Part shown: in pieces, positions 1-1,674 of the stretch | Numbering within the stretch: position 1 is the stretch's first letter | Layout of the letters: the number at the start of each line of letters is the position of its first letter | Source of the DNA: Escherichia coli | Lineage (GTDB): Bacteria; Pseudomonadota; Gammaproteobacteria; Enterobacterales; Enterobacteriaceae | Direction: 5' to 3' (one strand) | NCBI RefSeq assembly: GCF_003334335.1 | Contig: NZ_QOWQ01000093.1 | DNA length: 2,204 bases | The notes under the pieces: generated by a model | What the model was told of the DNA's origin: nothing | The model's input: the letters and a program-made list of their open reading frames with translations, nothing else | Databases searched by the model: none | Made by a program: the position numbers and the translations under genes

Positions 1-77
1 GCAACCAGCATTAGTGAAAATGAAATACCGACAATCACACACAGGACCTTTGCCGGCGTTATGAGTTTGTCTGACAT
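1..77 (-). CDS. Partial CDS, N-terminus only (ATG at 77-75, continues past window start). Begins MSDKLITPAKVLCVIVGISFSLMLVA: short polar N-terminus then a hydrophobic segment, so a membrane-anchored or secreted protein; candidate Rz-like i-spanin
   Basis: Hand translation of the minus strand. ATG at 77-75 is preceded by AAGGGG (88-83) at a 5-nt spacing, a plausible Shine-Dalgarno. The frame is open to the window edge. Codon first positions are G-rich (gac, gca, gtc, gtg, gtc, ggt, gtt). The spanin assignment is inference from position downstream of an endolysin and N-terminal topology only; only 25 codons are visible. Confidence 0.4.
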   Translation of the reverse strand, partial: MSDKLITPAKVLCVIVGISFSLMLV

Positions 78-79
78 CT

Positions 80-160
80 TTACCCCTTGATAGCAGTAAT
101 TAACTGGGCAACCACCCATAAAAACGGAATCAGCCAGACCAGCAAAAATTTCCAGTCCAT
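80..160 (-). CDS. Micro-ORF, 26 aa, MDWKFLLVWLIPFLWVVAQLITAIKG: a single predicted transmembrane helix; possible small membrane peptide, could be spurious
   Basis: ATG at 160-158 lies 11 nt after the stop of the Rha-like gene (TGA 174-172); stop TAA at 82-80. Strongly hydrophobic and Trp-rich. Weak Shine-Dalgarno (GAAGATGATAAAA upstream), so translation would need coupling. Its 3' end carries the Shine-Dalgarno of the next ORF. A T at codon position 2 throughout could generate this by chance. Confidence 0.2.
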   Translation of the reverse strand: MDWKFLLVWLIPFLWVVAQLITAIKG

Positions 161-171
161 TTTTATCATCT

Positions 172-867
172 TCATGCTGCGGTAGCTCTCCATGCAGCAA
201 GCAGACCAGCAATCCACTCAACACCTTTTGGGGTGAATTTAACCTGCGTAAAAGCATGACCATTGCCCGCCTCGCCCGTTTTCACGCTAAACCGCCCCGC
301 ATCCAGGTGATGCGAGTAAGGCGTCATTTTTCCAGCGAGGCGATACATTATTCCGTTCTCCAACAAAAACAGCCGGAAATCGGTTTCTTTGATACCGAGT
401 AACTTAGCAACTTCCCGGAATCCCATCAGACCAGATGCTTCAACATAGTTATCAACAAATTCAGCCTTCGGCGCTGCTATTGCCAGTTGATTTTCCAGCA
501 CTGCTTTCTGTTCAGCCAGTTTTGCCGCAAATCGCAACGCCTCAGGTAAAGTCCGGGGGATCTGAATACCATGCATCGCTTTGAGTCTTGCCAGCACAGA
601 ACGACGAACGGCCTTTGACTCCCTCATGCCAACGAGCATCATCTGGTCAAAATCCAGATCATAGTATGCCGTTCTTGTCTGGTTATTGTTTAACCGGAAT
701 TTTTTTCCGGTTCCATCAAGCTCTAGCTCATCCTCAATTTTTGCAAGAAACTTACGCGGTTCATGAGGGACTTCTCCGGCTTCTGCCCGGGCTGGATTAA
801 TAATGTTATTCAGAAAATCCAGACTACTCATGGATATTTCATGATCGACAGAAATCATCTCTTTCAT
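172..867 (-). CDS. Phage regulatory protein / antirepressor, Rha-like N-terminal domain plus KilA-C (ANT) C-terminal domain, 231 aa
   Basis: Complete ORF in the supplied track. Shine-Dalgarno AAGGA sits 7 nt upstream of ATG 867-865 (minus strand reads AAAAGGAATCAACC-ATG). The C-terminal half (LPEALRFAAKLAEQ...APKAEFVDNYVEASGLMGFREVAKLLGIKETDFRLFLLENGIMYR...GRFSVKTGEAGNGHAFTQVKFTPKGVEWIAGLL) matches my recollection of the KilA-C/ANT antirepressor domain. The N-terminal half (KFLAKIEDELE...YYDLDFDQMMLVGMRESKAVRRSVLARLKAM) resembles the Rha-family N-terminal domain. Both assignments are from memory, not a search. Confidence 0.85.
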   Translation of the reverse strand: MKEMISVDHEISMSSLDFLNNIINPARAEAGEVPHEPRKFLAKIEDELELDGTGKKFRLNNNQTRTAYYDLDFDQMMLVGMRESKAVRRSVLARLKAMHGIQIPRTLPEALRFAAKLAEQKAVLENQLAIAAPKAEFVDNYVEASGLMGFREVAKLLGIKETDFRLFLLENGIMYRLAGKMTPYSHHLDAGRFSVKTGEAGNGHAFTQVKFTPKGVEWIAGLLAAWRATAA

Positions 868-1013
868 GGTTGATTCCTTTTAGTGATGAACCCTGCGCAC
901 AGGAATAACCAGCCCAAAGAGGGTTAACCAGACCACTGCCGGTTATCCACCAGGGCTCATCCTGAAAGGTTCTTTGGTTTATTTACGCTTGTGCGAAGCG
1001 CAGAAATGACAAA

Positions 1014-1030
1014 GGCACCATTACGGTGCC
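1014..1030 (-). terminator. Small hairpin GGCACC-N5-GGTGCC; on the minus strand it is followed by TTTGTCATTTCT. Weak candidate terminator or RNA stability element downstream of the endolysin
   Basis: Seen directly: 6-bp perfect inverted repeat with a 5-nt loop, 110 nt downstream of the endolysin stop, with a T-rich but interrupted tail on the minus strand. The stem is short, so termination efficiency is doubtful. Confidence 0.25.
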
Positions 1031-1140
1031 TCTGCGTGAAATAATGTTCCTGACTTTATTCACTTACATTTTGCCAGCTCGCAGGATTTCGTGTTATCCG
1101 CCCGCGTTGGCCAACGTCATTTTTCAGCAAAATATTCTGC

Positions 1141-1674
1141 TTATCTGTCGATTCCCCAGCACGCCAGCGCGCTCTCCTGGTCTCGCCGGGATACCTGACC
1201 GTAACAGTTATTTGAGCGAATACGGCAGTCCCTGCCACCGTCCTTAATCCACCAGCGAATCGCTTCGCAGGCACCTTTTCGATCACCAGCATTAATTCGT
1301 CTGTAAAACGTCGACGGGAAACACTTACCGGGACCAATGTTGTACGGACAGAATGACGCGATCCCCGCTTTCTGGGGTTCGGTCAGCGGCACTCTGATGT
1401 TTTTCTCCACCCACGCCAGCGCTTTATCACGCTCAATGGCGTTAACCTGGTCGCATTTTTCCTTCGACAACTTCATGCCGGGGACGACAGGCTTACCATC
1501 CACCCGGGTGGCACCACGGCAGATGGTCCAGATACCTGCACCATCACGGTATGCCGTGGTGTGGTTACCTTCCTTTTCATCCAGAAACTGGTCGAGAATT
1601 TCAGGCGCAGAAGCCCCTGCGGCAATCAGCGCCAGAACGGCAGCCGACAGGCCGTATTTGATTTTTGCGTTCAT
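1141..1674 (-). CDS. SAR endolysin (phage-21 R-type lysozyme, T4-lysozyme-like muramidase), 177 aa
   Basis: Complete ORF. The N-terminus YGLSAAVLALIAAGASA is the Gly/Ala-rich weakly hydrophobic signal-anchor-release segment typical of SAR endolysins. The catalytic motif E-x8-D-x5-T is present at Glu35, Asp44 and Thr50 (EGNHTTAYRDGAGIWT), the same spacing as T4 lysozyme E11/D20/T26 and as I recall for phage 21 R. The whole protein closely resembles, from memory, the lysozymes of E. coli cryptic lambdoid prophages (RrrQ/RrrD type); this is not verified. Confidence 0.95.
   Translation of the reverse strand: MNAKIKYGLSAAVLALIAAGASAPEILDQFLDEKEGNHTTAYRDGAGIWTICRGATRVDGKPVVPGMKLSKEKCDQVNAIERDKALAWVEKNIRVPLTEPQKAGIASFCPYNIGPGKCFPSTFYRRINAGDRKGACEAIRWWIKDGGRDCRIRSNNCYGQVSRRDQESALACWGIDR

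Follow-up and report, generated by a model that had tools for sequence, protein, structure and literature searches.

The window, that is, the whole stretch of 2,204 nucleotides analysed here, derives from Escherichia coli (contig NZ_QOWQ01000093.1 of assembly GCF_003334335.1), and its minus strand constitutes part of a lambdoid late lysis region. The features concerned are the following.

1141..1674, minus strand: endolysin R, a GH24 lysozyme with a hydrophobic N-terminus, which puts the micro-ORF described below inside the late lysis cassette.
1009..1035, minus strand: terminator-like hairpin 3' of R, at the head of the ant module (the 66-nt stretch with the hairpin gives -24.2 kcal/mol, z -3.8).
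172..867, minus strand: antirepressor gene ant, 231 aa, with a KilAC/ANT domain (Pfam PF03374, E 7.6e-28).
172..175, minus strand: ATGA, in which the stop of ant and the start of the small ORF overlap, read from the sequence as a termination-reinitiation geometry.
80..175, minus strand: most likely coding sequence of the small ORF, 31 aa, MKMIKMDWKFLLVWLIPFLWVVAQLITAIKG, followed by TAA; its ATG (175-173) shares bases with the ant stop and is also present in a diverged copy, L091.
80..160, minus strand: the micro-ORF as first delimited, with ATG 160-158, 26 sense codons and TAA 82-80.
1..156, minus strand: homology block common to prophages without ant, beginning at codon W21, with position 156 as the recombination junction.
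83..88, minus strand: Shine-Dalgarno sequence AAGGGG of the next gene, b, formed by the final K and G codons of the small ORF.
1..77, minus strand: 5' part of ORF b, a hydrophobic protein of 43 aa, MSDKLITPAKVLCVIVG... (WP_001280935.1; phrog_4906), which runs off the window.

No Pfam family was matched by the N-terminal part of ant (867..172). The hairpin at 1009-1035 reads GAGGCACC..GGTGCCTT and is followed by a T-rich run; it is located in the 273-nt gap 868-1140 and was missed by a simple terminator scan.

The peptide of the 26-codon ORF, read on the minus strand from 160 to 80, is MDWKFLLVWLIPFLWVVAQLITAIKG and contains three Trp residues. The upstream TGA (174-172) is separated by 11 nt (171-161) from the ATG at 160-158, and the ATG of the next ORF (77-75) is found 2 nt past the TAA. 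All of these particulars, which the sequence-only reading had given, agree with the sequence and the ORF list, and the tightly packed, coupling-type arrangement that it described is seen in the two spacings. The frame, in addition, is open farther 5', with in-frame ATG codons at 169-167 and 175-173 and a GTG at 217, so the limit of 26 codons reflects the choice of a start codon and is no true boundary. The length by itself is unremarkable, since 16 ATG-initiated ORFs of at least 26 aa were observed in the window against 14.2 in shuffles. For hydrophobic ORFs of helix grade, one was observed while 0.03 would be expected per shuffled window (present in 3% of shuffles), and the best 19-residue Kyte-Doolittle window of the peptide reaches 2.31. 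This value, together with the family structure model described below, bears out the earlier claim of one transmembrane helix: the micro-ORF encodes a predicted single transmembrane helix, and it is conservation that is decisive against chance.

The start codon at 160-158 that had been proposed for the micro-ORF did not stand up. It has no Shine-Dalgarno sequence (duplex -1.0 kcal/mol), and it is replaced by ACG in the O157:H7/O145 copies and by ACA in the diverged copy L091; L009 and L091 both lack it. ATG 175-173, by comparison, is preceded at a distance of 11 nt by a GGAG (-6.4 kcal/mol). In L091 the N-terminus is MNTKQTY-WKF.., which has the same seven-codon length as MKMIKMD in the window even though six or seven of the seven residues differ. 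Owing to the upstream GGAG, the overlap with the ant stop and the conservation in L091, the reading 175..80 is preferred, and the true start is likely to be ATG 175-173 rather than ATG 160-158, giving the 31-aa product. The record of phage PhiR5_1 annotates the same 31-aa coding sequence as a hypothetical protein with its ATG overlapping the ant stop, and a protein cluster (P0001) named 31-aa 'membrane protein [E. coli]' represents the same coding sequence. In the E. coli records inspected, PGAP annotates the small downstream ORFs b, c and d and leaves out the micro-ORF; the expectation that such peptides are often unannotated is borne out, as it is usually without annotation in records.

A 400-nt query from the window showed 100% identity with both E. 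coli 2018-166 and phage PhiR5_1. In EDL933 the ORF occupies CP008957.1 complement(2150187..2150282). The gene order in an identical locus, L002, is holin, lysozyme, ant, a (the micro-ORF), b (43 aa), c (38-51 aa), d (28 aa) and Rz with Rz1 embedded, and the cassette already has a class II holin upstream of the micro-ORF. The ORFs a, b, c and d in this locus are all hydrophobic and are spaced 1-2 nt apart except for an 11-nt gap between c and d; the endolysin-spanin interval here collects an array of single-helix micro-ORFs. The Shine-Dalgarno sequence of b (83..88) forms a duplex of -7.8 kcal/mol with the anti-Shine-Dalgarno sequence. Beyond window position 1, the stretch 3324-3672 of L002 carries b (phrog_4906), c (phrog_1115/3246/4493) and d (phrog_4493) before Rz. 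The ORFs c and d look paralogous, and c corresponds to an N-terminally truncated copy of a 60-aa protein that is intact in phage PhiR5_2 (L008 2435-2617; order c, b, Rz).

Homologues of b sit between ant and Rz in 933W and P27, where b is the only one of the small ORFs present. The Sakai Sp15 region examined has another ant type and only a b homologue, ECs_5741. More generally, the 933W-type phages carry a different ant of 189 aa, and the start region of the b homologue behind it overlaps its stop (P27, L007 2488-2640; Sakai Sp15, L266 24748-24894, ECs_5741); this is the geometry of ant and a in the window, so the insertion of ant modules next to small membrane ORFs seems recurrent. The idea that b is a duplicated N-terminal helix of Rz was unsupported (BLASTP E 0.28). 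The micro-ORF was also considered as a known K-12 small protein (Qin/DLP12 YnfR, YnfS and similar), which was rejected; in Qin, rrrQ abuts rzpQ and no such ORF exists.

Protein-level comparisons assigned the 31-aa product to phrog_6632 (E 1.6e-4, residues 7-30 on profile positions 20-43), a profile that full-length relatives match over its whole length with E values from 1.4e-13 to 1.2e-29. An hmmsearch with the family alignment against 1.84 billion representative proteins yielded 27 relatives, all of them approximately 45 aa after upstream read-through had been trimmed, all bearing the N-terminal motif and WKF(L/I)L(V/I)W, and ending in either ..QLITAIKG or ..GYFIGQ(I/V)RWW. The full-length protein consists of a cytoplasmic, N-terminal amphipathic helix with the motif M-x-DFSKLIRELRLM-x-x-QLPN, which a kink separates from a single transmembrane helix that opens with WKF(L/I)L(V/I)W. 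AlphaFold2 run on the family alignment placed helices at residues 4-17 and 20-43 with a break at P19-N20 (mean pLDDT 78.9). Members occur in H-19B, in Stx1a, Stx2a and Stx2c phages, in Rac-SA53 and in the Salmonella phages SPN3UB, FSL SP-016 and SEN34. The gene is mostly unannotated in 53 phage records including H-19B, and the source names of family members are only 'phage protein' or 'hypothetical'; searches of Pfam, NCBIfam and PADLOC gave no meaningful match for the family. By homology, the micro-ORF is a member of a catalogued, uncharacterised phage protein family, which amounts to a modest annotation gap and no new kind of system.

In prophages without ant, the same frame runs upstream to a TTG or GTG start and gives a 44-aa protein, (M)IDFSKLIRELRLMISQLPNWKFLLVWSIPFLWVVSQLIVAIKG, whose start is preceded by GGGAGG (-10.2 kcal/mol). 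A terminator-like hairpin (-24.2 kcal/mol, z -5.1) is situated right after the endolysin gene and upstream of this 44-aa gene. Across nine diverse loci the arrangement recurs as a module composed of the terminator-like hairpin, a conserved spacer with GGGAG and a GTG or TTG start, and the stem shows compensatory changes. The hairpin (A-tract, GC stem, U-tract) and a spacer of about 25 nt precede every full-length gene (L003 2878-2910, L147, L151, L159, L177, L209, L210, L213, L268 and L267). Its conservation spans phages of Escherichia, Salmonella, Citrobacter and Pseudomonas. Of its 23 predicted pairs, 5 have undergone compensatory changes, including 3 pairs of the main stem, and Rfam returned no match for this conserved upstream hairpin, which may serve as a terminator, an RNA-stability element or a recombination signal.

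The first 20 codons of the full-length gene (L003 2943-3002) are also unusual at the nucleotide level, in that the N-terminal 60 nt have pS 0-0.25 compared with 0.6-1.2 in the helix part. M14 is invariant in the full-length family and is preceded by GGGAG (-8.7 kcal/mol). The low pS in codons 1-20 and the invariant M14 could be due to a second, internal start or to constraint acting on the RNA.

The usual slot of the PHROG 6632 gene in Escherichia, Salmonella and Citrobacter prophages lies between the endolysin gene and either the i-spanin gene or b, and in most lysis-cassette copies 1-2 nt separate its stop from the start codon that follows. Cassettes with the order holin, endolysin, small gene, (b), Rz/Rz1 include three endolysin types (GH24 SAR lysozymes, GH19-like enzymes and one other type) and several spanin types. 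The module of hairpin and small gene is also present among baseplate or tail genes, in Salmonella phage SEN34 (L268 1995-2132) and in Pseudomonas phage YMC11/02/R656 (L267 2498-2644). Its presence at different genome positions suggests that it moves like a moron or mobile accessory module.

Comparison of the window with these full-length genes revealed where the two forms diverge. Copies matching window positions 1-400, in full-length or truncated form, were detected in 781 of 5,426 complete E. coli genomes. Among these, 225 genomes carry a copy adjoining ant at 95-100% identity, and in 551 the match, at about 90% identity, is to prophages without ant and is confined to window positions 156 and below; the megablast alignment to the latter starts at query position 245, which is window position 156 (89.7% identity). 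More diverged copies were taken from IMG/VR, a Citrobacter genome and Salmonella. When GTDB species representatives were scanned with a protein-derived pattern, the sole hit was in Citrobacter, and a metagenome scan added only near-identical ant-adjoining copies.

The window copy retains the helix start WKF(L/I)L(V/I)W, with W, K, F and W identical in the alignments, and it keeps the slot before b (TAA, 2 nt, ATG of b), with Rz following in L002. Absent from it are the conserved N-terminal segment M-x-DFSKLIRE(L/I)R(L/V)M..(Q/K)L, in place of which stands MKMIKMD, and the hairpin/GGGAG/GTG-TTG module, whose position is occupied by ant. The ant module carries its own hairpin after R. In brief, the window copy and PHROG 6632 share a homologous transmembrane helix (WKFLLVW.IPFLWVV..) and C-terminal tail, the slot upstream of b/Rz and the late operon; they differ in that the window copy has 31 aa rather than 44-45 and is without the amphipathic helix, hairpin, native Shine-Dalgarno sequence and GTG/TTG start. 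Aligned in this way, the sequences indicate that the hairpin, ribosome-binding site and codons 1-20 gave way to the ant module, and that the window copy is a 5'-truncated gene with its junction exactly before W21. The micro-ORF is no free-standing gene; it is the 3' part of a gene of about 44 aa that has lost its conserved N-terminal half, and as a truncated derivative it is not the best representative of its family.

Codon-structured variation supports translation of this frame in the family. Over codons W21-G44, the sense frame has a pN/pS of 0.07 and no stops, while the other five frames range from 0.23 to 3.4 and each contain stops. Codons 34-44, the part unconstrained by the search pattern used for retrieval, show pS 0.56-1.25 and pN 0-0.13, and their variable columns fall on codon positions 1, 2 and 3 in numbers of 4, 4 and 11. 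The identity of the stop codon varies among TAA, TAG and TGA at the same position in most copies. Disrupted copies also exist, comprising a nonsense allele in five loci, a frameshift in two and a 1-nt deletion in L091. An antisense plus-strand ORF at 87..185 (32 aa), which shares the third codon positions, was considered and discarded; it has stops in L147 and L151, and its pN/pS is 0.23 versus 0.07. On this pattern of substitution the frame is a protein-coding one at the level of the family, and the conservation of ORF and frame that the sequence-only reading had proposed to check is seen in homologous loci.

For the truncated form itself the evidence is mixed. Among loci retrieved via the 3' end of ant alone, the ORF is intact in 24 of 25 from IMG/VR and in 13 of 13 from metagenomes. 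Near-identical ant-adjoining copies differ by six non-synonymous changes (M>T, Q>R, G>R, K>N, V>G, F>V) and one synonymous change, which looks like relaxed constraint; comparable noise is seen among close copies without ant, which is what decaying prophages should show. Between the window and L091, the unconstrained C-terminal part has six synonymous and no non-synonymous differences. Taking the window-L091 comparison as proof of selection specific to the truncated form was rejected, being confounded by recombination. The transmembrane codons of L091 are closer to L151 than to the window, and the synonymous divergence between window and L091 is about 0.9 over these codons versus 0.43 in ant and 0.47 in b, roughly twice that of the flanks. 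Moreover, L260 and P0003 are chimeras that combine an ant-junction N-terminus with a helix of the type found without ant. The transmembrane segment is a recombination joint, so its protein-like conservation may be inherited from full-length genes. Lacking the most conserved domain of the family, the truncated copy may work only partly or not at all.

With slightly better than even confidence, the micro-ORF is taken to be the surviving 3' part, namely the transmembrane helix and short tail, of a PHROG 6632 membrane protein gene of about 44-45 aa, whose 5' part was displaced by the ant module and whose start now lies at the ATGA. On this account, the remaining segment stays in frame and would start at the ATG (175-173) overlapping the ant stop. 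On the Q-antiterminated late transcript, ribosomes finishing ant would re-initiate at the ATGA, and the predicted product would be a 31-aa, N-in, single-pass inner-membrane peptide. The ribosomes would then terminate inside the Shine-Dalgarno sequence of b and could be passed on to b. The full-length gene, for its part, would be expressed together with the lysis genes under Q antitermination and would act in the inner membrane. As a weakly held best guess, the peptide may serve an accessory late-stage membrane function through helix-helix contacts with other single-pass lysis proteins (holin, b, i-spanin). Position is what ties the family to lysis, and this link is weakened by the occurrence of the module among baseplate or tail genes in SEN34 and YMC11/02/R656.

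The alternative that survives best, a real possibility though a less probable one, regards the segment as a dead remnant, that is, a recombination scar of the ant insertion, in which case the peptide would do nothing and any translation would be incidental. Its persistence would be due to the recent date of the event, to use as a homology patch for exchange of lysis modules, and to the ribosome-binding site of b carried by the last codons. This would fit the loss of the conserved N-terminal domain, hairpin and native ribosome-binding site, the excess of non-synonymous polymorphism in ant-adjoining copies, the frameshift in L091, the crossovers within the segment displayed by the chimeras and the position of the Shine-Dalgarno sequence of b; the neighbouring ORF c is likewise an N-terminally truncated copy of a longer small gene. 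The frame is nevertheless intact in 37 of 38 independently retrieved ant-adjoining copies, L091 has kept both the ATG overlapping the ant stop and the length of the seven-codon N-terminus despite the near-complete change of its residues, and the solely synonymous differences in the C-terminal part likewise speak against a dead sequence.

An extension of the preferred reading, in which the micro-ORF is the surviving 3' part of a PHROG 6632 gene, is unlikely but would be of wider consequence. It holds that lysis cassettes of Gram-negative phages could have in PHROG 6632 a further, hitherto overlooked component, a small inner-membrane protein coupled to the i-spanin gene and tuning the action of holin or spanin, and that helix-only derivatives together with b, c and d would have been selected as modulators titrating partner helices. 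If so, Stx-type prophages would have, between R and Rz, a hotspot for the evolution of lysis-timing peptides. Shiga toxin is released through expression of the late lysis region of Stx-type prophages, and it is in this region that the micro-ORF is found. Should the family affect lysis timing or spanin function, a new part of a well-studied pathway would be gained; otherwise, it would be one more small phage accessory gene.

Rather improbable is the possibility that the stretch acts in cis as a coupling ORF, such that translation through it keeps the initiation regions of b and Rz open and sets their levels relative to ant, with the peptide sequence being secondary. The 1-2-nt spacing from stop to next start that recurs across most lysis-cassette copies, the ATGA overlap at the 5' end and the Shine-Dalgarno sequence of b within the ORF are all in keeping with such a role, but the family-wide pN/pS of 0.07 shows selection on the peptide sequence as such in full-length genes, and in SEN34 the following gene, which has a Shine-Dalgarno sequence of its own, begins only after 13 nt.

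A membrane-active toxin had also been suggested, and a Hok/Ldr/Ibs-like toxin of a type I toxin-antitoxin pair or a stand-alone small lysis toxin is now regarded as very unlikely. The product is admittedly a small, very hydrophobic single-helix peptide in a prophage. Against this, the ORF lacks its own promoter and sits inside an operon, joined to its neighbours by an overlap or a 2-nt gap, neither an antisense RNA family nor a promoter could be detected, conservation is missing from the antisense frames, the searches of Pfam, NCBIfam and PADLOC produced no toxin, holin or defence family, and the soluble N-terminal helix of the family is atypical of such toxins. Finally, a chance ORF arising from composition (T-rich second codon positions) in a non-coding spacer, which had been offered as an equal alternative, is scarcely credible, because, common as ORFs of such length are in the window, this one is homologous to a protein family, varies in a codon-structured manner in the sense frame only across Escherichia, Salmonella and Citrobacter, and has a hydrophobicity rarely reached in shuffled windows.

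A positional analogue is LysA of phage P2, a membrane protein encoded between the endolysin gene K and the spanin genes lysB/lysC that is reported to affect lysis timing. LysA is much larger and has several transmembrane segments; the two are alike in being membrane proteins in the slot between endolysin and i-spanin, and the analogy is positional, as no sequence relation of the micro-ORF to P2 LysA was found and no holin or antiholin family was matched. Small single-pass membrane proteins are also familiar from bacteria, including the regulators AcrZ, MgtS and MgrB and the type I toxins Hok, Ldr, Ibs and TisB. These resemble the micro-ORF product in size (26-45 aa), in having one hydrophobic helix and in being commonly missed by annotation, whereas the micro-ORF shows no sequence similarity to them, is not free-standing, has no antisense RNA that could be found and is encoded in a phage late operon. 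The full-length PHROG 6632 gene is further reminiscent of lambdoid morons, for example bor and lom, in being a compact module with a terminator-like hairpin at varying genome positions. Unlike in morons, the hairpin stands upstream rather than downstream, and no promoter is evident by eye between the hairpin and the start; expression of the full-length gene in the lysogen is therefore not expected.

Searches directed at the locus itself and at the literature were negative within their scope. No promoter-like site was found near 80-217 on either strand, and an Rfam search at the micro-ORF locus gave no match. No holin family was matched by the micro-ORF in Pfam, PHROGs or NCBIfam, and its C-terminal tail consists only of K-G. 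The peptide strings and EDL933 coordinates were not found in the supplements of the EHEC ribosome-profiling papers PMC5597208 (Sakai), PMC5331693 and PMC4765031 (EDL933). Literature searches by protein accession and PHROG identifier returned nothing, and those on small genes between endolysin and spanin nothing relevant; the small RNAs reported in the Pas sRNA preprint lie upstream of the holin and not at the micro-ORF.

One further ORF in the window, at 1786-2046 on the plus strand (MDYPNLPKQTFADL...), lies upstream of the endolysin gene and opposite to the lysis genes. In PhiR5_1, the matching position and strand (L001 1355-1615) are annotated as a 'DUF1823 containing protein'.
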